Shown here in pieces: positions 19,623 to 35,700 of a stretch of 46,779 nucleotides of DNA; position 1 is the first letter of the stretch, and every line of letters starts with the position of its first letter. The notes under the pieces were generated by a model. It made no database searches, had not been told where the DNA came from, and worked only from the letters and a program-made list of their open reading frames with translations. A program made the position numbers and the translations under genes. Source of the stretch: Clostridiales bacterium CCNA10 (GTDB lineage: Bacteria; Verrucomicrobiota; Kiritimatiellia; RFP12; UBA1067). Location: the NCBI GenBank assembly GCA_963618935.1, contig CAVEVC010000107.1, positions 1 through 46,779 of the forward strand, given 5' to 3'.

Positions 19623-21140
19623 TCACGCGGTGGGCGCCGACCGCCCCGCCCTGTTCAGCAAATCCGCAAGCCCGCGGCAGGGCACACGCGCCAGCTCGCG
19701 GGGTTCGACCTTCTGCAGCCCGCCGCCATACGACCGCCCCGCATTGCGGATAGACTGCGCCGAAATGCCCAGAAGCACGTTCCAGACCTCTTCGTTCCGC
19801 CCGGCGTCCCCCTGCACGAACTGCGCCAGCGCCCCCTTGGGATAGAGCATGAGGAACGAGTTCGTGGCGATGGCCCGGGAGTCGTTCAGGATAAACCTCA
19901 CCGGCACCCCGCCCGCGCTCCCGCGCCCCATGTAGGAACAGAGAATGGGAGCCGGTTCGCGCTGTTCCTGCGCGTACCAGACATTCCGTGATGCACACAG
20001 GTTCCGCTTCGCCGTATCCTCAATCCCCGATGCGAGGTAGGATTGGACGGATGCCGGAAGCTCGGCAATCTCATACCCCGTGCAGTCAAGCAGGAAACGC
20101 CGTTCCGCGTTCACCGGCACTCCCAACGTATCCGCCTTGACATGATCAACCTTGAGATGTCGCGGACTCGGCAGGATCGGTTTCAGATAGCGCCTGGGAA
20201 TTCCCCTCTCACGTACCGTCGACTCGTTCAAGACGAAGAACCCGTTGTCCCCCGTCGCAATACCCCGCCGGATGTCGAAACAATCTCCCAGACGGAGGCC
20301 ATCCCCGTCTTCGCCCCCTCTTCGCGGTGGCCATTTCGACGCTTTCCGCAGCACCTCGCGTCCATACGTCTCGGACCGGATTGGATGTTCAAGATCGGTA
20401 CCGTAGGTGAAGACCGCCTTGGCCCTTTCCGGCATGACGTTACGGAACCAGACGACGCACGAGGAAACAAGTGCATCGGAGAAACGTACGTCCGCCGCGT
20501 CAAACGCGTGGACGCGCAGCAAGGTGACGCGCCGCGCCAGAAAGTCGCGCAACGCCTTTCCGTAGTTGACCGACATCCACTCCGACGGAATGAGCCAAGC
20601 TCCCACGGCTTCCGGCTTCATCCAATTCCAGGACAATAACAGAAAATGGCAGTAAAGCCCCGCCAATCCGGAAATGGAGACATCCGCACGCCGCGCGACC
20701 GCATTTTGCAACCGCTTCTTGTCCGCGCACGGAATCGCATGGTGGCGCACATAGGGCGGATTGGCAAAGACGACGTCCGCCAGACTCTCCGGTACAAGCG
20801 CCGTGAAGTCCCCCTCGACGATTCGACAACGCCGTCCCCCCCACAGGCGTACCGCCGCACGATGGAACGCCGCATCGCGCTCACAGGCAAAGACCTCCTT
20901 CAAGGAACGCCCCAACTCGGCATAGGCTGCGGAAACAAACGCGCCGGTTCCAACCGAAGGCTCCAACATCGTCAGTCCACCCTCACCGTGCAGATAGGGC
21001 CGCGTTTCCCGCACAATGGCAGAGGCCAGTTCAAAAGGCGTCGCAAACTGTCCCATTCGCCGACGATCTTCGATCGTCTTCGCCGCGTCGATCGTTTTTT
21101 GCGCCTCCTGCCGCGCCGTTTCGACCTGGTTCAACGTCAT
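19623..21140 (-). CDS. Type II N6-adenine DNA methyltransferase (Eco57I-like, gamma class)
   Basis: Motif I (LEPSVGTGAF) precedes motif IV (FANPPYV). There is a 4-nt overlap with the upstream nuclease gene. GC is about 53-58% in hand-counted lines. Confidence 0.85.
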   Translation of the reverse strand: MTLNQVETARQEAQKTIDAAKTIEDRRRMGQFATPFELASAIVRETRPYLHGEGGLTMLEPSVGTGAFVSAAYAELGRSLKEVFACERDAAFHRAAVRLWGGRRCRIVEGDFTALVPESLADVVFANPPYVRHHAIPCADKKRLQNAVARRADVSISGLAGLYCHFLLLSWNWMKPEAVGAWLIPSEWMSVNYGKALRDFLARRVTLLRVHAFDAADVRFSDALVSSCVVWFRNVMPERAKAVFTYGTDLEHPIRSETYGREVLRKASKWPPRRGGEDGDGLRLGDCFDIRRGIATGDNGFFVLNESTVRERGIPRRYLKPILPSPRHLKVDHVKADTLGVPVNAERRFLLDCTGYEIAELPASVQSYLASGIEDTAKRNLCASRNVWYAQEQREPAPILCSYMGRGSAGGVPVRFILNDSRAIATNSFLMLYPKGALAQFVQGDAGRNEEVWNVLLGISAQSIRNAGRSYGGGLQKVEPRELARVPCRGLADLLNRAGRSAPTA

Positions 21141-22084
21141 AGCCCCAGCGCCTCCATGTCGACCATGCGGTGTTCCCAGATCCAGTCAATCCCCTCGGCC
21201 GCCTCATAGCCCAGGTATCCGCTGTCGAAGTAGCCACAGAGGAACAGCACGAAACGGACATCCGGCCCAAACGTCCTTTTCAATTGCTGGATCTTCTGCG
21301 CCTCTTCCTTCCGACGCTTGTTGACGTTGGCAAAATCTCCGGCGGACTTCGCCTCGATAAAGAGGGGAACGGAGTCAGGCTGGGCATTTCGCGGCAGAAT
21401 CGCCACGTCGACGGGGATGTTCACGGTCTCCGTCCGTGCATCGGACAGGAAGACCCTGACATTGAGGTGGTAGGCGAACTCCCCCGGACGAAGCTCGGCG
21501 GAAGAGGCCGGACGAACCCTCCGATAACCGCGCGCCTCCAGGAAATCCGCAATTGCCTTGAGCTGCCGCTCTTCCTGCGCCTTGCGGATGATGGGATCGG
21601 AGTAGGCACCGCACAGACGATCCGCGACAATCAGCGATGCCCGCGCGCGCTGGACGGCAGAAGCCCTTTTACCCGTCGCGAGCCACGGCAGAAGGTCGTG
21701 GTCCAAAAGCTTGGCAATGACCCCCATGATTTTTTCCGAGGCCTCCCGCGCATCGCGCACGGCACGCTTCCGCCCCTCGTCCTCCATGCCCCTGACCACG
21801 GCGGAACCGACCCGCGCCAATCCCGCCAGGCGGTCACGCGCCAACGGTGGGCATGTCATCTGGCGCAGGACAGGCAGCATCGTCGGCGCAAGCGTGAGCA
21901 TCGCCGCATTGAGGCTGCACCCATCCTCCGTCACCAGAAAGACCTCGTCCACGTTCTTCCGCGCCCGTTCACGCGCCGCGCGAAACGCAGGCGGCGCAAA
22001 CGCCAGAAACCACCGGTTGTAGAAATCCACCGATTGCTCGATGTCGTTCTTCCAATCATCGACGCGCTGGCGATTGATGTCCAT
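21137..22084 (-). CDS. Type II restriction endonuclease (XamI-family-like, PD-(D/E)xK)
   Basis: It starts MDINRQRVDDWKNDIEQ. The PD-ExK-like catalytic region is IPVDVAIL...LFIEAKSAGDFANVNKRRKEE. It is translationally coupled to the methylase. The family name is from memory of XamI-type sequences and is not verified. Confidence 0.65.
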   Translation of the reverse strand: MDINRQRVDDWKNDIEQSVDFYNRWFLAFAPPAFRAARERARKNVDEVFLVTEDGCSLNAAMLTLAPTMLPVLRQMTCPPLARDRLAGLARVGSAVVRGMEDEGRKRAVRDAREASEKIMGVIAKLLDHDLLPWLATGKRASAVQRARASLIVADRLCGAYSDPIIRKAQEERQLKAIADFLEARGYRRVRPASSAELRPGEFAYHLNVRVFLSDARTETVNIPVDVAILPRNAQPDSVPLFIEAKSAGDFANVNKRRKEEAQKIQQLKRTFGPDVRFVLFLCGYFDSGYLGYEAAEGIDWIWEHRMVDMEALGL

Positions 22085-22110
22085 GAAACGACCGGCGGCG
22101 GTAGTAAAGC

Positions 22111-23457
22111 TTAGAGCGCGAGGCGCAGGGTCGATTCGCGGGCGGGGCCGATGGAGAGGATGCCGAGCTTCGCGCCCGAGAGCTCCACGAGGCGGTCCAC
22201 GTAGGCTTTCGCCTTGGGCGGCAGGTCCTCGATGCGCGTGACGTGGGAGGTCTCGCACATCCAGCCGTCCATCTCCTCGTAGATCGGCTTCACGCGGGCG
22301 AGCTCGTCCGCCGAGGTCGGCATGTCCTCGATGCGGCGGCCGTCCAGCTCGTAGGCGACGCAGATCTTGATCTTCGGGAAGACGTCCATCACGTCGAGCT
22401 TCGTCATCGCCCAGTAGTCGATGCCGTTGATCTGCTGCGCGTAGCGCGCGACGACGGCGTCGTACCAGCCCGTGCGGCGGGGACGCTTCGTGACCGCGCC
22501 GAACTCGTGTCCGCGCTCGGCGAGCGTCCGCCCGTCCGCGTCCTGCTTGTCCTCGGCGTTGTAGAGCTCCGTCGGGAACGGCCCCGCGCCGACGCGCGTC
22601 GTGTAGGCCTTGACCACGCCCACCACGCAGTCGATGTCGCGCGGGGAGAGGCCGCTGCCGATGCACGCGCCGCCCGAGGTCGGGTTGGACGAGGTGACGA
22701 AGGGATAGGTGCCGAAGTCGATGTCGAGCATCGTTCCCTGGGCGCCTTCGAGGAGGATGGACTTGCCGGCGGCCTTCGCCTGGTGGAGCATCGGCACGGT
22801 GTCGCGGATGTAGGGCGAGAGCTTCTCCTGCGCGGCCCTGTAGATGGCGACGATTTCGTCCGCGTCCATCTGGTAGCCGCGGACCGTGCAGCCGGGCACG
22901 TCGATCTGGTCGCCCGCGTCCACGCGCTCGGCCTTCAGCATCCGCAGGCGGCGGTTCGTCTCCTCCACCTGCTCGCGCACGGCGTCGAGGAAGTTCGCCG
23001 CGAGCATGTCGCCGCACCGGAGGCCCGTGCGGGAGACCTTGGCGGCGTAGGCGGGGCCGATCCCGCGCCCCGTCGTGCCGATCTTCTTCCCCGCCGCGCG
23101 GGCGGCCTCCTCCGCCTTGTCGAGCGCGCGGTGGTAGAGCATCACCATCTGGGTGCGGGTGGAGATGAAGAGGCGTCCCTTCGGCTCGACGCCCGTCGCG
23201 CGCATGGCCTCGATCTCCTCGATGAGGTCGAGCGGGTTCATCACGACGCCGTTGCCGATGACGCAGACCTTGCCGTCGTGGAGGATGCCGCTCGGGATGA
23301 GGCGCAGGACGCGCGTGCGGCCCTCGGCGATGACGGTGTGGCCGGCGTTGGAGCCGCCCTGGTAGCGCACCACGTAGTCCGCCTTGTCCGTCAGGACGTC
23401 GATGATCTTCCCCTTGCCCTCGTCGCCCCATTGGGCCCCGACCAAAACCGTATTCAT
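22111..23457 (-). CDS. purA: Adenylosuccinate synthetase
   Basis: MNTVLVGAQWGDEGKGKIIDVL, GGSNAGHTV and GTTGRGIGPAY are present. Start at 23457; the track's upstream extension is non-protein-like. Confidence 0.95.
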   Translation of the reverse strand: MNTVLVGAQWGDEGKGKIIDVLTDKADYVVRYQGGSNAGHTVIAEGRTRVLRLIPSGILHDGKVCVIGNGVVMNPLDLIEEIEAMRATGVEPKGRLFISTRTQMVMLYHRALDKAEEAARAAGKKIGTTGRGIGPAYAAKVSRTGLRCGDMLAANFLDAVREQVEETNRRLRMLKAERVDAGDQIDVPGCTVRGYQMDADEIVAIYRAAQEKLSPYIRDTVPMLHQAKAAGKSILLEGAQGTMLDIDFGTYPFVTSSNPTSGGACIGSGLSPRDIDCVVGVVKAYTTRVGAGPFPTELYNAEDKQDADGRTLAERGHEFGAVTKRPRRTGWYDAVVARYAQQINGIDYWAMTKLDVMDVFPKIKICVAYELDGRRIEDMPTSADELARVKPIYEEMDGWMCETSHVTRIEDLPPKAKAYVDRLVELSGAKLGILSIGPARESTLRLAL

Positions 23458-23493
23458 TGCGTGTTCTCTTCCTCGTTGCGAAATAACCGGGAC

Positions 23494-23502
23494 ATTATAC
23501 CA
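23494..23502 (-). promoter_or_regulatory. Extended -10 element TGgTATAAT upstream of purA
   Basis: The reverse complement reads TGGTATAAT, about 36 nt upstream of the purA ATG. Confidence 0.5.
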
Positions 23503-23558
23503 AAAGGCGGGCGGCCTGGCGCGCGGCGGCGACGATTTCCGTCGGCCGCGCCCGCCCC

Positions 23559-23585
23559 GGCCGCAACAAGTTGCGGCCCTCCCGC
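23559..23585 (+). repeat. 27-nt palindrome-containing repeat GGCCGCAACAAGTTGCGGCCCTCCCGC (copy 1)
   Basis: It is identical over 27 nt to 25473-25499 on the same strand. It contains a 9-bp-stem hairpin, GGCCGCAAC/GTTGCGGCC. Confidence 0.95.
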
Positions 23586-23660
23586 TGCGGGGCCCCCAGA
23601 GTGTCCCGTACCGCCATGGCCTTTCCATCTCCATGAAGCCCCCTGTGCCATCTGTTGGCC

Positions 23661-24686
23661 CTACGGGAGGAGGTCGTAGTTGACCCTGTCCGGGCCGAGG
23701 TTCGTCTTCCGGTCCCATTCGAGGTTCCTGTCGAGCGGCGTCGGATTGAGGTAGTAGAGGAACTTGACGCCGCAGACGATGAAGTTGTAGCCCGTGTACA
23801 TGAGGATGTCGCCGTAGATCTTCCCGTAGTAGGCCTCGACGATCCGCCCCCTGTCGTCGCGGCGCGTCCGAATGCGGAAGCAGAAGCAGCGGTTCTCGTC
23901 GTAGTTGCCCACGTACTCCAGCTTCCTGTTCCGTCCCGTCCAGCAGAGGTAGTCCGGGCGGTATCCGTCCTCCGGCGCCGTGCGGATCCTCAGGCGGAGG
24001 TTGGGCGGTGGATTGGACTCCACGAGGCCGTTCCCCTCCCCGGGGAACCGGACCGCCATGGAGTCCCTGAAGGACGTTCCCCTGACATCGGCGCCGTTCA
24101 CGCCCTCACCCAGCTCTTCGTGGGGGAGGCGGGCGAACTCGATGTCCGCGACCTTCCCCTTCCCGAACGGCGGCAGCCAGTCCCCGGCCATGAGGTCGAG
24201 CGCGAACCGGCCGCCGTTGACGTCGGCGATCTCGCGCTTGACGTCAAGCTTGCAGGCCTTCACGAACAGGGGGATGGGGTGTTCCACGCGCTGGAGGCGG
24301 ATCGTCGCGACCAGGTTGTCCGGCTGCCAGATCCCGAGAAGGTTCTTCTCCGAGAACCTTCGTCCCCACCCTTGTGGACAGGGATAGAATCCTGACGGTG
24401 GCCTCTCTACCCAACACCCTACGTTTCCGCAGTTGGTTCTTCCGCGTAGCCGGCAACGACCGTTGACGTCCGTGACCGCCCTGTCGAAATTAGGTCCATC
24501 TGAACCCTTCACGGCAAACCAGCCGTTGTTGACGTCGAACACCCCCATGACACTAACGTTCTTCAACGCCTTGCCTGTCTTGTCGTCTACGACGAAGACC
24601 CCGAACCTTGCAATGTCCGCGTCTGACTGGCACATTGACAGTAAGGTAAAAAAACAGACGAACGCTTTGATTCCCTTCATAAGCAT
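23661..24686 (-). CDS. Secreted hypothetical protein with N-terminal carboxypeptidase-regulatory-like beta-sandwich
   Basis: It has a signal peptide (MLMKGIKAFVCFFTLLSMC). FVVDDKTGKALKNVSVMGV...TDVNGRCRL is CarboxypepD_reg-like. The rest is unrecognised. The 5' part lies in a GC trough (about 45-55%). Confidence 0.65.
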   Translation of the reverse strand: MLMKGIKAFVCFFTLLSMCQSDADIARFGVFVVDDKTGKALKNVSVMGVFDVNNGWFAVKGSDGPNFDRAVTDVNGRCRLRGRTNCGNVGCWVERPPSGFYPCPQGWGRRFSEKNLLGIWQPDNLVATIRLQRVEHPIPLFVKACKLDVKREIADVNGGRFALDLMAGDWLPPFGKGKVADIEFARLPHEELGEGVNGADVRGTSFRDSMAVRFPGEGNGLVESNPPPNLRLRIRTAPEDGYRPDYLCWTGRNRKLEYVGNYDENRCFCFRIRTRRDDRGRIVEAYYGKIYGDILMYTGYNFIVCGVKFLYYLNPTPLDRNLEWDRKTNLGPDRVNYDLLP

Positions 24687-24692
24687 CCTCCT

Positions 24693-25332
24693 TTAATTCG
24701 GATTCTTCCCGACAATCCTGTCGAAGAGCTTGTACACGAAGAAATAGGCCACGTTCTTGAAGTCGGAGTGTTCCCACCTGAAACGAACCACCCCATTTTC
24801 GCTCGACTTTCGTTTTGCCGGCCACTTGTCCGTGTTCGCAATGCAGTCGGCATCCAGTCGTATGTTACCGCTCGCGCCAAACGCATTGATGTAGTTCGCG
24901 CCTGCAGCGCCACTCTCGGCGGGGATCGCGTCGGCGAGGAACCGCGCCCGTAGCCAGTCCCGGTGGGTGAGGTCACCGTGTGCGGGCCCGCCTCCCCCGC
25001 CCACGAGGGCGGGGAGGATGACGGCACGAGCCCGGCGAGGCGTCCTCAGAGGCGAAGAGGTGGATGCGCGCGGGGTCGGGGAACGGGTACGCCTCGGCGG
25101 CGAGCGCCGCGAGCGAACCCCGCGCCGGCCACGGGAACACCCCCGCGTCGAGCCAGACGGCGTTCGTCGCCGGGGGCGCGCCCGCCTGCGACGCGCGCAG
25201 CACGTCCCGAACGTCCTCAAGGTCCGCGAGATCCGCAAGGGGGACGCTTCCGCCGCACAGGACGGCTGCGGACAGAACACAGGAAGCCGCGCGGACGGCG
25301 CGGGACGGCACAACATCTTTCAACTTCATCAT
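24693..25332 (-). pseudogene. Secreted hypothetical protein gene interrupted by a 1-nt frameshift near 25030 (or an assembly error)
   Basis: Frame 1 reads MMKLKDVVPSRAVRAASCVLSAAVLCG...HLFASEDASPG (signal peptide). Frame 2 continues ARAVILPALVGGGGGPAHGDLTHRDWL...FVYKLFDRIVGKNPN. The alternative N-terminus of frame 2 is R/P-rich and not protein-like. Confidence 0.45.
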
Positions 25333-25425
25333 ACGTACAATCTCCCCTTGATGGCTTCATCCTATCATAAGCGAAGAACATGCGCAAGGGGGGAAAGAGG
25401 GATTGTTTGAAAAACGGGAGGGGGC

Positions 25426-25499
25426 GGGAGGGACGCAATTCATTGCGTCCGTGTCCCCCGCGCGCCGATCCAGGCCGCAACAAGTTGCGGCCCTCCCGC
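25426..25499. repeat. GGGAG-[hairpin]-spacer-[hairpin]-CTCCC element (includes 27-nt repeat copy 2 at 25473-25499)
   Basis: P1 GGGAG (25426-30) can pair with CTCCC (25493-97). Inside lie two hairpins, GGACGCAAT/ATTGCGTCC (25431-50) and GGCCGCAAC/GTTGCGGCC (25473-92). It sits in the priA-downstream intergenic gap. On the minus strand the first hairpin is followed 15 nt later by a T5 run (weak terminator geometry). Confidence 0.8.
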
Positions 25500-25619
25500 A
25501 TGCCAACCGCCCCACAGCGCCACGCGCCGAGGGCGGCGCGGGTACATTGCGCGCCGGGCCGCGTTGCCGAGCCCTCTTCCCCGTTAGGCGAGTTTCTGCC
25601 GTCAAGCGAAGTTCTACCA

Positions 25620-27851
25620 TCAGGCGAAGGTCTGCGCGTCGACGTCGAAGGAGATGCGAAGGTCCTTCGGCGCGGGCCGGGCGGACTCGATCCACGCGAC
25701 GGCGGCCACGATGTCCTTCGCCGCCGGCGCGCGCACGACCACCTGGTAGCGGAACCACCCCTCGGCCTTCAGGAGCGGCGCCTCCTCGGCCTCCGAGACG
25801 CGGAAGAGCGCCCCCGTCCGCGCGGCGTTGGACCCTTGCGCGGCGTTGGACCCCTGCGCGGCGTTGAACCGCTTCGCCCAGGAGGCGAGGGACTGCGCGT
25901 AGAGGCCCGCCCAGCTCCGCGCGCGCGCCTCGTCCTTCGACCGGAAGAGGAGCGTCGCCATGCGGCAGAACGGCGGGAAGTAGGCCGCGCGGCGCGCGGC
26001 GAGCTCCTGCGAGGCGAAGGCGGCGAAGCCCCGCTCGGAGGCCGCCGCCGCGATCGCGGGCGCCTCGGGGGAGAAGGTCTGGATGTAGACCTCGCCGGGC
26101 TTCTCGGCGCGCCCGGCGCGTCCGCTCACCTGGGCGAGCAGCTGGTAGGTGCGCTCGCTCGCGCGCGGGTCGGGGCGGTGGAGCGAGGTGTCGGCGTTCA
26201 GGACGCCGACGAGCGTGACGTTCGGGAAGTCGAGGCCCTTGGCGATCATCTGCGTGCCGATGAGAATGTCCGCCTTGCCCGCGCGGAAGGCGGAGAGGAT
26301 GTCGTCGTGCGAGAACTTGCGCGCCGTCGAGTCGGCGTCCATGCGCAGGATGCGCGCGTGGCGGAAGCACGCCTTGAGGGCCGCCTCGGCGCGCTGCGTG
26401 CCGATGCCGGTGTAGCTGAAGTCCGTCCCATGGCAGTTCGGGCAGGCGGGCGGCACGTGCATCCAGCCGCCGCAGACGTGGCAGCGCAGGCAGTTGTCCG
26501 CCCGGTGGTAGGTGTAGGGCACGGAGCAGTCCGGGCACTCCGCCACCCAGGCGCAGGCGGGGCATTCGAGGACGCGCGAGTAGCCGCGCCGGTTGAGGAA
26601 GAGGATCGTCTGCTCGCCGCGCTCGAGCCGCGCGTGGAGGGCGTCGAGGAGGAGGGAGGAGAAGATCGGCGCGTGGCCGACGCGCGCGGCCTCCTCGTCC
26701 ATGTTCACGAGATGGACGGCCGGGAGCGCGCGGCCCGCGACGCGGTTCGGCACGCGCGCGAGCGCGTACTTGCCGGTCGCGGCGTTCTGCCAGGACTCGA
26801 GCGACGGCGTGGCGCTGCCGAGGACGGCGACGGCCCCCTCGATCTTCGCGCGCATCACCGCGACGTCGCGCGCATGGTAGCGCGGCGTCTCGTCCTGCTT
26901 GTAGGAGGGGTCGTGCTCCTCGTCCACGACGATGAGACCGAGGCCGCGCACGGGCGCGAAGACCGCGCTGCGCGGCCCCACCACGACGCGCGCCTCGCCC
27001 GTGCGGATGCGGTGCCACTCGTCGTAGCGCTCGCCGTCGGAGAGCGCGGAGTGGAGGACGGCGACGCGCGCGCCGAAGCGCCCCGCGAACCGGCGCACCG
27101 TCTGGGGCGTGAGCGCGATTTCGGGAACGAGGACGATGGCGCCCTTCCCCGCCTCCAGGACACGCGCGATGGCCTGCAGGTAGATCTCCGTCTTCCCGCT
27201 CCCCGTCACGCCGTGGAGGAGGACGGGCCTTGTCGCCGCGTTGATCGTCTCCAGCGCGGCCCGCTGCTCGGGGTTGAGCGCGAGCGGCGCGGTCGGCATC
27301 ACGCGCCGCCCGGCGAGCGGGTCGCGCCGCGCCGCGCGCGGCGCGATCGCGAGCGCCCCCTTCCAGGCGAGCGTCTTCAGCGTGGCGGGCGTCGTCGCGA
27401 ACTCGCGCACGAGCTGCCGCATCCACCCGCCGCCCACGCGGCGGATCTCCGCGACGAGCGCGCGCTGGCGCGCCGTCAGGTCCGCGGGCCCGCCCTCCGC
27501 CGGCTCGACGTACAGCAGCTCCTTCGGGCGGGCGGACGGCTTCAGGACGGCGGCCGGCAGCGCCGCCCGGAGCGCCGTCTCGATGGGCGCGTGCGTGTAG
27601 GCGGCGATCCAGCGCACGAGCTTCAGGAGCGCCGGGGAAAAGAAGGGCGAGCCGTCCTCGATCGCGAGGACGGGGCGCGTCCTGAACGCGGGCGCCTCCT
27701 CCGTGAGCGCGAGCGCGAACCCGCGCGCGACGCGCCCCGAAAACGGAACGCGGAGAAGCTGCCCGACGAGCAGCTTCTCCGTGAGTTCGGCCGGCACCGC
27801 GTAGGTGAAGAGCCGGTCAAGCGCCAGGTCGATGGCGACCGAGACGAACAA
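25620..27851 (-). CDS. priA: Primosomal protein N' (replication restart helicase PriA)
   Basis: It shows Walker A (LLHGVTGSGKTE), DEEH, and the Cys-rich Zn region CPACAWVAECPDCSVPYTYH...CHVCG...CPNCHG. Confidence 0.95.
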   Translation of the reverse strand: MFVSVAIDLALDRLFTYAVPAELTEKLLVGQLLRVPFSGRVARGFALALTEEAPAFRTRPVLAIEDGSPFFSPALLKLVRWIAAYTHAPIETALRAALPAAVLKPSARPKELLYVEPAEGGPADLTARQRALVAEIRRVGGGWMRQLVREFATTPATLKTLAWKGALAIAPRAARRDPLAGRRVMPTAPLALNPEQRAALETINAATRPVLLHGVTGSGKTEIYLQAIARVLEAGKGAIVLVPEIALTPQTVRRFAGRFGARVAVLHSALSDGERYDEWHRIRTGEARVVVGPRSAVFAPVRGLGLIVVDEEHDPSYKQDETPRYHARDVAVMRAKIEGAVAVLGSATPSLESWQNAATGKYALARVPNRVAGRALPAVHLVNMDEEAARVGHAPIFSSLLLDALHARLERGEQTILFLNRRGYSRVLECPACAWVAECPDCSVPYTYHRADNCLRCHVCGGWMHVPPACPNCHGTDFSYTGIGTQRAEAALKACFRHARILRMDADSTARKFSHDDILSAFRAGKADILIGTQMIAKGLDFPNVTLVGVLNADTSLHRPDPRASERTYQLLAQVSGRAGRAEKPGEVYIQTFSPEAPAIAAAASERGFAAFASQELAARRAAYFPPFCRMATLLFRSKDEARARSWAGLYAQSLASWAKRFNAAQGSNAAQGSNAARTGALFRVSEAEEAPLLKAEGWFRYQVVVRAPAAKDIVAAVAWIESARPAPKDLRISFDVDAQTFA
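25821..25874 (-). repeat. In-frame 18-bp tandem repeat (about 3 copies) inside priA, encoding AAQGSN repeats
   Basis: The copies read CGCGGCGTTGGACCCTTG / CGCGGCGTTGGACCCCTG / CGCGGCGTTGAACCGCTT. The protein reads FNAAQGSNAAQGSNAARTG. Confidence 0.9.
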
Positions 27852-35244: not shown

Positions 35245-35270
35245 GGAGGATTCTCCTTTGGCATTAAGCC

Positions 35271-35428
35271 GCCGCTTCGCGGCTTTAAGTAGTTAAGCAG
35301 TTAAGTTGTTAAGTAGTTAAGTAGTTAAGTTGTTAAGTGGTTAAGTGGTTAAGTGGTTAAGTAGTTAAGTTGTTAAGTTGTTAAGTTGCTAAGTTGTTAA
35401 GTAGTTAAGTTGTTAAGTTGTTAAGTTA
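35271..35428 (+). repeat. GC hairpin (GCCGCTTCGCGGC) followed by 18 contiguous 8-bp units TTAAGTNG
   Basis: The units run back-to-back from 35285 to 35428. The variable base is A/T/G. Variants are TTAAGCAG, CTAAGTTG and terminal TTAAGTTA. The array is strongly AT-rich in a GC-rich genome. Confidence 0.95.
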
Positions 35429-35433
35429 TTATA
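35428..35433 (-). promoter_or_regulatory. Possible -10 box TATAAT at the inner edge of the repeat array (would place the array in the dhaK 5' leader)
   Basis: The minus strand reads TTCTATAAT. There is no TG extension and no convincing -35. Confidence 0.25.
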
Positions 35434-35462
35434 GAAGCAGCAACAAAATGGATTGATCGTTC

Positions 35463-35520
35463 GGGAGGGCGCGTGTCCTCACGCGCCGCAAATACGGCGG
35501 CTGGGGACAGCCGCCCTCCC
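35463..35520. repeat. GGGAG-[hairpin]-spacer-[hairpin]-CTCCC element (second family member)
   Basis: GGGAG (35463-67) can pair with CTCCC (35516-20). The hairpins are GGCGCGTG/CACGCGCC (35468-87) and GGCGGCTG/CAGCCGCC (35496-515). It shares GTGTCC..CGCGCCG..GGC[hairpin]GCCCTCCC with the 25426-25499 element. Confidence 0.8.
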
Positions 35521-35568
35521 AGCGGAATCGAGACAATTAATTGCCGAAGCAAGAAGCAATCTGCTCAT

Positions 35569-35700
35569 CACTTAACCACTCAAGCCGCGAAGCGGCGACT
35601 TAACCACTTAACTACTTAAAGACTTAACTACTTAAAGCCGCGAAGCGGCGACTTAACCACTTAACTACTTAAAGCCCGTAGGGCGACTGAACCACTTAGC
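35569..35700 (+). repeat. Inverted arm: 12 CNACTTAA units (reverse complement of TTAAGTNG) interleaved with three GC hairpins
   Basis: Nine units are exact ACTTAA and three are degenerate. The hairpins are GCCGCGAAGCGGC (35584-96, 35637-49) and GCCCGTAGGGC (35674-84). A 40-nt module is repeated exactly at 35582-35621 and 35635-35674. The arm abuts the VOC gene stop codon. Confidence 0.95.

Follow-up and report, generated by a model that had tools for sequence, protein, structure and literature searches.

The stretch of DNA analyzed here (the window) comprises the 46,779 nucleotides (nt) of contig CAVEVC010000107.1 from Clostridiales bacterium CCNA10 (assembly GCA_963618935.1), which GTDB places in the Kiritimatiellia. 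Its middle part carries priA and purA, and between these two genes lie two copies of a 27-nt repeat that an earlier note, made from the sequence alone, had described as the borders of an excisable cassette of exactly two secreted-protein genes. All genes around the repeats are on the minus strand (Table 1). The repeats themselves are as that note had described them: GGCCGCAACAAGTTGCGGCCCTCCCGC is found exactly, and on the same (plus) strand, at 23559-23585 and 25473-25499. The number of such 27-mer pairs expected by chance is 0, 100 dinucleotide shuffles yielded no match even at three mismatches, and no third site within three mismatches is present in the 46.8-kb window. The comparisons described below suggest that the repeats are of the repetitive extragenic palindromic (REP) type and that the DNA between them is what is left of a larger accessory island.

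Read in the direction of transcription (minus strand), the repeat is GCGGGAGGG-CCGCAA-CTTG-TTGCGG-CC, that is, a GGGAGGG head followed by a hairpin. A palindrome is thus present in each copy, as claimed, but not with a 9-bp stem and a 2-nt loop; the workable hairpin has an 8-bp stem (GGCCGCAA/TTGCGGCC) and a 4-nt loop. The ∼20 nt of additional similarity reported next to the repeats is marginal and matches a variable 5′ extension present in some members of the family described below. A related third hairpin, missed in the earlier note, is found in inverted orientation at 25426-25450 (GGGAGGGACGCAATTCATTGCGTCC on the plus strand). Because of this inverted hairpin, the upstream copy of the 27-mer is one half of an inverted doublet. 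On the minus strand the composite reads GCGGGAGGG[hairpin 1]-22 nt-[hairpin 2]CCCTCCCGC from 25499 to 25425, which resembles a REPIN (REP doublet forming hairpins) or a bacterial interspersed mosaic element (BIME), and its predicted fold shows both hairpins. The downstream copy is a singlet, and the start of the ∼13 nt of spacer-like sequence that follow it, GGGGCGGGCGCGG, is similar to TGGATCGGCGCGCGG and GTGGTTGGCGCGCGG. No U-tract directly follows the stems, a terminator and promoter scan gave nothing at the repeats, and an Rfam search of 23300-25800 at a permissive E-value returned no family matching them. A match to the clustered regularly interspaced short palindromic repeat (CRISPR) family CRISPR-DR9 inside the remnant between the repeats was set aside as chance (E value of 0.51; 19.6 bits compared to a gathering score of 45), and a CRISPR was rejected because the copies are solitary or paired, without regular spacing.

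Copies of the unit were searched for with the pattern GGGAGGGNCGCAANNNNTTGCGNCC in one genome per species (GTDB), and at least 104 stretches matched (related loci are given L numbers below). The family unit is (C/T)GGGAGGG-N-CGCAA-NNNN-TTGCG-N′-CC, ∼27 nt long, with a loop that is CTTG in type 1 and TTCA or TTTA in type 2 and whose orientation relative to the head is constant. Among the matches listed, the hosts are nearly all metagenome-assembled genomes (MAGs) of gut, rumen, or manure Kiritimatiellae or Lentisphaerae, and other phyla contributed a few chance-like singletons with other loops. Each of three MAGs has at least 24 to 26 copies in at least 15 to 18 separate loci, and overall about 10 to 26 copies at least were sampled per MAG. 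Of 146 copies, 135 have a Watson-Crick pair at N-N′ in the stem, compared to 34% expected if the two positions were independent; the pair is T-A in 59, A-T in 51, G-C in 15, and C-G in 10. The hairpin is under selection, and compensatory changes preserve its stem. Both flanks of the unit are unrelated from copy to copy. Inverted doublets account for 16 of the 146 copies (8 doublets by the strict pattern), with spacers of 2 to 22 nt, and most often pair a type 1 unit with an inverted type 2 unit, the makeup also seen in the window; other doublets were found in L001 (8465-8540), L027, L030, L031, L039, L070, and L078. Head-palindrome-inverted-head forms are present in L019 and L052, and other palindromes under the identical head, for example GGGAGGGTCGCGCTCCTGCGCGACC, cocluster with the unit.

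The exact 27-mer is the rarer C-G stem variant; JGI metagenome contigs hold 12 copies of it, set in six or more unrelated contexts. Four public metagenome runs gave a contig depth of 73 to 1484 over 25438-25651, compared to ∼3 to 64 in adjacent bins (∼10 to 60 times higher). Where genes were called (the window, L001, L003, L004, L113, and L114), the copies are intergenic or within remnant open reading frames (ORFs), and those near annotated genes are all oriented along transcription. One of the findings that the earlier note had named as fatal to its cassette, that the 27-mer is a common intergenic REP, thus largely applies: the 27-mer is dispersed and has unrelated flanks, but it does not follow most operons. 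Full-text literature searches returned no description of REP elements in Kiritimatiellae. REP, REPIN, and BIME elements are well known, as are accessory islands at intergenic sites rich in repeats; the new points here are the family and its host phylum.

The site between priA and purA is found in three states. In the empty state, represented by L114 and L115, priA (93% amino acid [aa] identity to the window) is followed after 79 nt by an amidohydrolase gene, purA, and cdsA. The full state is represented on its left side by L113, where the upstream genes are identical and priA is followed by a degenerate REP doublet, a promoter, a gene for a 523-aa LamG-domain protein, and a giant gene. On its right side it is represented by L001 and L003, which carry the 3′ part of the giant gene, gene A, REPs, and two small, low-GC paralogues encoding secreted proteins, both with an exact 27-mer behind them, and then a type 1 plus type 2 doublet, the amidohydrolase gene, purA, and cdsA. 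The giant gene encodes ∼2100 aa, and Pfam recognizes 15 TSP3_bac domains in its L001 ORF. L113 matches L114 over 12,198 nt at 99.0% identity, and this match ends 2 nt past the priA stop; L114 12219-16208 matches L001 8511-12497 at 98.2% identity, beginning exactly at hairpin 2; and within the island L113 14513-17618 overlaps L001 1-3754 at 98 to 99% identity. These nucleotide matches mean that one species is polymorphic for an island of ∼10.8 kb, both borders of which are at REPs. The earlier note had proposed a search for empty sites carrying a single repeat, and the result was positive: strains with 99% identical flanks have or lack the island, and the empty site retains one partial REP, consisting of a head-like GGGAGGG and hairpin 2 only. 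Outside this group, the amidohydrolase gene directly follows priA in L119 (priA 89% identical), and a GDSL lipase gene lies between the two in L116 (priA 79% identical). Since both outgroups lack the REP and the island, the island is derived. The window lineage, whose flanks are 94 to 96% identical to L114, and the L113/L001 lineage carry the island at the same site, so by parsimony the empty state of L114 is a secondary loss; horizontal replacement may have produced it instead. The strains that are otherwise 98 to 99% identical also differ by 654 nt in the TSP3-repeat region of the giant gene (L113 15274-15292 compared to L001 762-1416), apparently repeat-number variation in a putative surface protein.

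The window represents the third, eroded state. Gene A is intact, but the second of the "exactly two genes" of the earlier note, the supposedly frameshifted 24693-25332 ("gene B"), is a deletion remnant in three pieces. These pieces match the start of the LamG-domain gene, an internal piece of the giant gene, and the end of the giant gene, and their native frames are all different. Junction 1 reads ...GAGGACGCC|TCGCCGGGC... with a CGCC microhomology, and junction 2 reads ...GGCGGGCCC|GCACACGG...; the microhomology at the two junctions is 2 to 4 nt. On the basis of the three pieces, the three native frames, and the microhomology junctions, gene B is a pseudogene left by two illegitimate deletions in which >7 kb was lost. 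The microhomologies of these internal deletions are unrelated to the REPs. The window lacks the small secreted-protein genes, and of the amidohydrolase gene it retains only the end. On the purA side, the 95 to 98% identity to L001, L114, and L059 ends at window position 23540, 18 nt from the REP singlet, and these 18 nt are similar to the beginning of the doublet spacer. Both the amidohydrolase gene and the full doublet are still present in the nearest public genome, that of the Hadza MAG CAKULR01 (L059; purA 97.8% identical in aa and 97.3% in nt). The simplest reading of these sequences is a deletion of ∼1.3 kb with one endpoint in the doublet spacer and the other in the final part of the amidohydrolase gene; hairpin 1 survived it as the "downstream direct repeat." In the interval from gene A to the singlet, the last ∼30 nt of 23586-23660 show weak similarity to, and may derive from, the conserved end of the 3′ untranslated region (UTR) that in relatives lies behind the small genes and before their REP subfamily. 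The sequence between the doublet and gene B may act as a promoter. This odd arrangement is very unlikely to be a misassembly, because contigs of independent runs span the junctions (Table 1).

Table 1. Features of the priA-purA interval in the window and their matches in related loci
Feature	Coordinates	Strand	Remarks
priA (primosomal protein N′), left flank	25620-27851	-	Pfam PriA domains; 93% aa identity to L113 and L114
Element X	25506-25561		Second dispersed repeat, ∼55 nt; hairpin CGCGCCG-CCCT-CGGCGCG; between priA stop and doublet
Whole REP-like doublet	25425-25499	-	22-nt spacer; counterpart at L001 8465-8540 (92% identity), upstream of amidohydrolase gene
REP-like unit type 1, left arm of doublet	25473-25499	-	120 nt downstream of priA stop; exact 27-mer
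REP-like unit type 2, inverted, right arm	25425-25451	-	GGACGCAA-TGAA-TTGCGTCC-CTCCCGC on minus strand
Putative promoter and 5′ UTR of first island gene	25333-25424	-	TTGCGC-17 nt-TAGGAT; ribosome-binding site (RBS) GGGGAGA; conserved with L113
Remnant 1 of gene B	25040-25332	-	Signal peptide and ∼97 codons of LamG-domain gene
Remnant 2	24986-25039	-	∼55 to 70 nt from inside giant TSP3-repeat gene, out of frame with both neighbors
Remnant 3	24693-24985	-	Last ∼97 codons of giant TSP3-repeat gene; low-GC stretch before gene A
Gene A	23661-24686	-	Intact, 341 aa, signal peptide; RBS AGGAGG directly after remnant stop codon
Spacer, gene A to REP singlet	23586-23660	-	75 nt
REP-like unit type 1, singlet	23559-23585	-	Exact 27-mer; followed by spacer-like sequence and deletion scar
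Last ∼15 amidohydrolase codons and purA promoter	23458-23540	-	Sequence matches; promoter TGGTATAAT
purA (adenylosuccinate synthase), right flank	22111-23457	-	97.8% aa identity to L059, 96% to L001; Pfam Adenylsucc_synt on orthologues
Match: doublet, promoter, first ∼97 LamG codons	25498 to 25033		L113 12214-12658, 83.5%
Match: internal giant-gene piece	25050 to 24981		L113 14502-14571, 86%; L001 1-59, 88%
Match: last ∼97 giant-gene codons and gene A	24985 to 23659		L001 5573-6908, 88%
Match: purA side	23540-23400		L001 9752-9892, L114 13463-13603, and L059; 95 to 98%
Junction-spanning contig of run X19	23377-23573		0 differences
Junction-spanning contig of run X16	23569-23746
Junction-spanning contig of run X15	24769-25069
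Junction-spanning contig of run X19	25014-25168

We consider it probable, at roughly 80%, that the two direct repeats are REP-type elements, one of them part of a doublet and the other left single by a deletion, that flank the debris of a REP-bordered accessory island. Both 27-mers are members of a REP-like family of gut and rumen Kiritimatiellae. The upstream copy makes up the left arm of the inverted doublet just after priA, and the downstream copy is probably the surviving left arm of the doublet that relatives have upstream of the amidohydrolase gene next to purA. Some strains carry between priA and the amidohydrolase gene the REP-bordered island of ∼10.8 kb with the LamG gene, the giant TSP3-repeat gene, gene A, and the two small low-GC secreted-protein genes, each with a REP. 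In the window, two out-of-frame microhomology deletions fused the LamG 5′ end, the internal giant-gene piece, and the giant-gene 3′ end, and the further deletion of ∼1.3 kb would have taken the second hairpin along with the amidohydrolase gene; gene A alone is intact. The comparisons directly show the family membership and dispersal of the repeats, the covariation in their hairpin, the three site states, the mosaic makeup of gene B, and the deletion of the amidohydrolase gene. The REPs may plausibly have promoted the gain or loss of the island through dispersed homology and hairpin formation; such a role is supported by the finding that both island borders and one deletion endpoint in the window coincide with REPs. 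This role, the way in which the REPs spread, and any action as terminators or stabilizers of mRNA are inferred.

The likeness to known REPs and REPINs, as in Pseudomonas fluorescens SBW25 (GI) and Escherichia coli (REP/BIME), extends to several features: a conserved head with an imperfect palindrome, tens or more of dispersed copies per genome with unrelated flanks, a position between genes or in remnant ORFs at the loci where genes were called, singlets and short-spacer inverted doublets, and a stem kept by compensatory changes. The GI REP of SBW25 is GTGGGAGGGGGCTTGC with the palindromic core GGGGGCTTGCCCCC (PMC3337134), and its GGGAGGG head and CTTG center resemble the unit in the window. 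Singlets, doublets, and head-palindrome-inverted-head forms have likewise been described for SBW25 (Bertels and Rainey, PMC3337134). However, the host of the window is a gut bacterium of the Kiritimatiellae in the Planctomycetes-Verrucomicrobia-Chlamydiae (PVC) group, whereas the groups of REP-associated tyrosine transposases (RAYTs) described in PMC5581495 are from Enterobacteria and Pseudomonas. Doublets are also a minority here by the strict pattern, and several palindrome cores share one head. As in hotspots of miniature inverted-repeat transposable elements (MITEs) or BIMEs, element X, the doublet, and the singlet pile up in one region, and the borders and at least one deletion endpoint are located there. 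No signature of terminal inverted repeats with target-site duplication, as expected of a transposase-mobilized MITE, was identified, and the gene B deletions, unlike those of such hotspots, used 2- to 4-nt microhomologies unrelated to the repeats.

Several observations weigh against this explanation. No RAYT was detected: tblastn with the E. coli RayT (NC_000913) gave no match at E<0.8 in 0.93 Mb (the window plus 119 loci), and a motif regular expression gave none over the 0.93 Mb of REP-flanking DNA, so the mobilizing mechanism that defines the REPIN-RAYT system is without support here. The coding cores hold 23% of the copies compared to 54% of random 25-mers, a depletion of only 2.3-fold, as measured by a crude test based on GC content at third codon positions (GC3) that overcalls ORFs in DNA of 65 to 70% GC. 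In the 46.8 kb there are only three copies of the subfamily, and a different subfamily contributes one doublet (35463-35522); the element is not one that stands after most operons, and its clustering at the island is nonrandom. The scar at the empty site is not the clean single doublet expected from simple recombination between direct REPs, and the direction of the change, gain or loss, was derived by parsimony from few genomes. Finally, the island parts are 84 to 88% identical in nt to relatives compared to 94 to 97% for the flanks, and the synonymous divergence (dS) of gene A from its L001 copy is 0.25, compared to a dS of 0.10 for purA and 0.13 for priA. Paralogue exchange or separate acquisition of island parts could lie behind the lower identity, and the dS values suggest faster evolution or paralogue exchange in the multicopy gene A family.

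The cassette reading, by which the 27-mers are attC-like or other attachment (att) sites and a dedicated recombinase moves the 1.9 kb between them, can draw on the identity of the direct repeats and their palindrome and on the locus being a hotspot for accessory genes with presence/absence polymorphism. A good example of its appeal is L001 7036-8540, where promoterless-looking small low-GC genes in one orientation are each followed by their own repeat copy, superficially like an integron cassette array. However, the repeat is dispersed, has unrelated flanks, and is mostly away from island genes and from arrays, the interval is deletion debris and not a discrete unit, and the two copies delimit no unit, as the downstream one adjoins the deletion of its partner hairpin and the amidohydrolase gene. 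The attC sites of integrons have RYYYAAC/GTTRRRY cores. The palindrome CCGCAAC/GTTGCGG does not fit them, there is no IntI and there are no R″/R′ cores, and the unit is only 27 nt compared to 57 to 141 nt for attC. No integrase, transposase, or recombinase was found among the gene-like ORFs of the window, and Pfam found no integrase in the island ORFs of relatives (the L113 LamG gene and the L001 giant ORF and two small genes). The combination of an integrase with repeats duplicated from an att site, which marks an integrative island, is thus lacking, and the border repeats are generic REPs. Among the public-run contigs, which show presence and not absence, there was no deletion or circle joint across the 27-mers. 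Joints that appeared to go back from 25556-25561 to 23552-23558, with extra letters between, proved to be other genomic spots with element X beside a REP and not circles. Because of the missing recombinase, the misfit to the attC cores, and the lack of a recombination joint in the contigs, the REP-type reading was adopted, and site-specific movement of the 1.9 kb appears very improbable. What survives of the earlier proposal is its spirit: repeat-bordered gain and loss of accessory DNA applies to the larger island of ∼10.8 kb, but not to a site-specific cassette of two genes. Hardly more credible than such a cassette would be an assembly artifact, in which the contig was misjoined via the 27-mer or element X into a false order of priA, remnant, gene A, and purA. 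The window is probably metagenome assembled, and 25438-25651 is highly repeated in metagenomes. However, a misjoin at a REP would have placed hairpin 2 and the start of the amidohydrolase gene next, not its last 45 nt, and contigs of independent runs (X19, X16, and X15) span each odd junction.

Two further explanations keep the hairpins functional. They could be nonmobile elements, terminators or 3′ stabilizers of mRNA, that spread only when genes were duplicated along with their 3′ UTRs; the window copies would then have remained from 3′ UTRs duplicated in this way among paralogous genes for secreted proteins. The C-G variant does lie after the stops of paralogous small genes, with a conserved 3′ UTR of ∼90 nt (L001, L003, L004, L124, and L128), the copies near annotated genes point along transcription, and the window doublet is followed by CCCCCTCCCGTTTTTC. 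We nevertheless think this unlikely: around most members unrelated sequence reaches right up to the unit on both sides, which co-duplication of 3′ UTRs cannot explain, the stems lack a directly following U-tract and the terminator scan was empty, and the inverted doublets and a-palindrome-a′ forms (L019 and L052) are typical of REP/REPIN dynamics (PMC3337134). This explanation excludes the REP-type one only in part, as a hairpin role at transcript ends is compatible with REPs that were co-opted as terminators. A second and distinctly less probable idea is that the hairpins are recombination sites of a hitherto undescribed, RAYT-independent system that shuffles secreted-protein genes; each gene would move within a module bounded by REPs and bring its own 3′ hairpin along. 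Such a system, again at long odds, would be functionally like an integron without IntI, with the priA-purA interval as one landing pad. The coincidence of island borders and module boundaries with hairpins in L001, L004, and L128 fits this idea, as does the lack of a RAYT in the DNA searched, and hairpin-based shuffling of modules without a RAYT would be of interest if true. Under the REP-type reading favored here, the practical lesson is that short identical direct repeats around odd genes in high-GC gut Kiritimatiellae should be suspected of being REP-type before they are taken as att sites. The reading also puts on record, for a phylum of the PVC group, a REP/REPIN-like family whose stems clearly covary, and a strain-level island (giant TSP3-repeat gene, LamG gene, and a secreted family of >1100 members) whose borders and decay products lie at the repeats.

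Gene A, the intact gene of the interval, has 1105 homologues and is under purifying selection, with a ratio of nonsynonymous to synonymous divergence (dN/dS) of 0.20 to 0.42. Pfam and NCBIfam recognized no family in gene A or in both frames of gene B, an exact-protein lookup of gene A gave no record, and a profile search of gene A against PDB sequences gave nothing significant. Its AlphaFold2 model (46 homologues) has a mean predicted local distance difference test score (pLDDT) of 47.8, and since the model is poor, only the N-terminal beta-sandwich was trusted. Foldseek matched this N-terminal domain to CnaB2 (8bdw_A; target-normalized TM-score [TMt] of 0.77) and to a transthyretin-like domain (5aq0_B; TMt of 0.70), so that a CnaB/transthyretin-like beta-sandwich at the predicted N terminus is credible. 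Matches of gene A to dioxygenases and pilins were taken as generic fold matches. L003 and L007 have several gene A paralogues. The family forms tandem arrays (L007 1-7038; L003 288-4238; L128) of close (72 to 84%) and distant (∼26%) paralogues with truncated fragments of upstream genes between them. Each gene A copy examined, including those in L004, L007, and L118, keeps the last 57 to 95 codons of the upstream gene directly before AGGAGG. We infer that this retained stretch carries the expression signals of gene A. In the window, gene A is probably still expressed, driven either by the surviving island promoter or by the low-GC stretch that lies ahead of every gene A copy.

The drop in GC content that had led the earlier note to call the module compositionally foreign exists but is local: a GC content of 49 to 56% is confined to ∼24350-24950, which covers the 3′ end of gene B together with the initial 300 nt of gene A, and the rest of the interval is at 61 to 76%. 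The GC content of gene A is 61.5% in the window compared to 61.8 to 62.5% in L001, L004, L007, and L118, and the first 300 nt of gene A (53%) and the 3′ end of the giant gene (58%) each have the same GC content in the window and in L001. Because the trough is common to all gene A homologues compared, it is a trait of this family and of the stretch upstream rather than the sign of a recent foreign arrival. A toxin/immunity orphan module made up of the gene B 3′ end and gene A was also considered and rejected, as no toxin, Rhs, or contact-dependent inhibition (CDI) domains were found and both parts are conserved (∼84% aa identity). Like CDI/Rhs orphan modules, a truncated 3′ fragment of a giant secreted-protein gene lies directly upstream of gene A at several loci. 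Unlike them, the giant ORF has only the TSP3_bac domains (15 copies), the fragment and gene A are conserved and not hypervariable, and gene A, at 341 aa with a signal peptide, does not resemble typical immunity proteins. That the fragment carries the promoter and RBS of gene A is the simpler reading.

Other features of the window and of the related loci were noted. Copies of element X that are 95 to 98% identical are present in L016, L026, L033, L034, L044, L049, L077, L089, and L098 (CAKULR01 and relatives), and the element is absent at this site from L113 and from a run X19 contig in which 25499 is joined to 25618. The doublet of the other subfamily, with a GGGAGGG head, lies at the center of an intergenic stretch of ∼56% GC (35245-35700) that also has ∼20 tandem copies of the 8-nt TTAAGTNG (35285-35430), inverted arrays of this 8-nt unit at 35598-35680, and three copies of the hairpin AAGCCGCGAAGCGGCGACTT. 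TTAAGT-type repeats stand beside an exact 27-mer in the metagenome contig L129. Contigs with repeats of the Kiritimatiellae type (L011, L031 and related ones, L040, and L056) were found in bins named Limosilactobacillus gorillae, Gemmiger sp., Clostridium sp. CAG:138, and Barnesiella intestinihominis. The bin named Limosilactobacillus gorillae, CAVJWR01, has 10 loci at 58% GC. These bins look mislabeled or contaminated, and the repeats are a likely cause of contig breaks and misbinning in gut and rumen MAGs.

The neighbors of the interval include genes for MlaD (with MlaE/MlaF in the loci of relatives), a prepilin-type protein, CdsA, ThiF, a GH97 protein, and methionyl-tRNA synthetase (MetRS). 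Between purA and cdsA lies a restriction-modification pair, an Eco57I-family methylase (19623-21140) and a XamI-family endonuclease (21137-22114), with a GC content of 59 to 63% and a methylase GC3 of 0.73. In L001, L114, and L115, cdsA directly follows purA, and the pair appears to be a second strain-specific insertion flanking purA. Within priA, 25819-25856 contains a 36-nt in-frame length polymorphism, and contigs of three runs skip these bases; the PriA protein of the window contains the tandem repeat NAAQGSNAAQGSNAA and has a length of 743 aa compared to 731 aa in the closest relatives.

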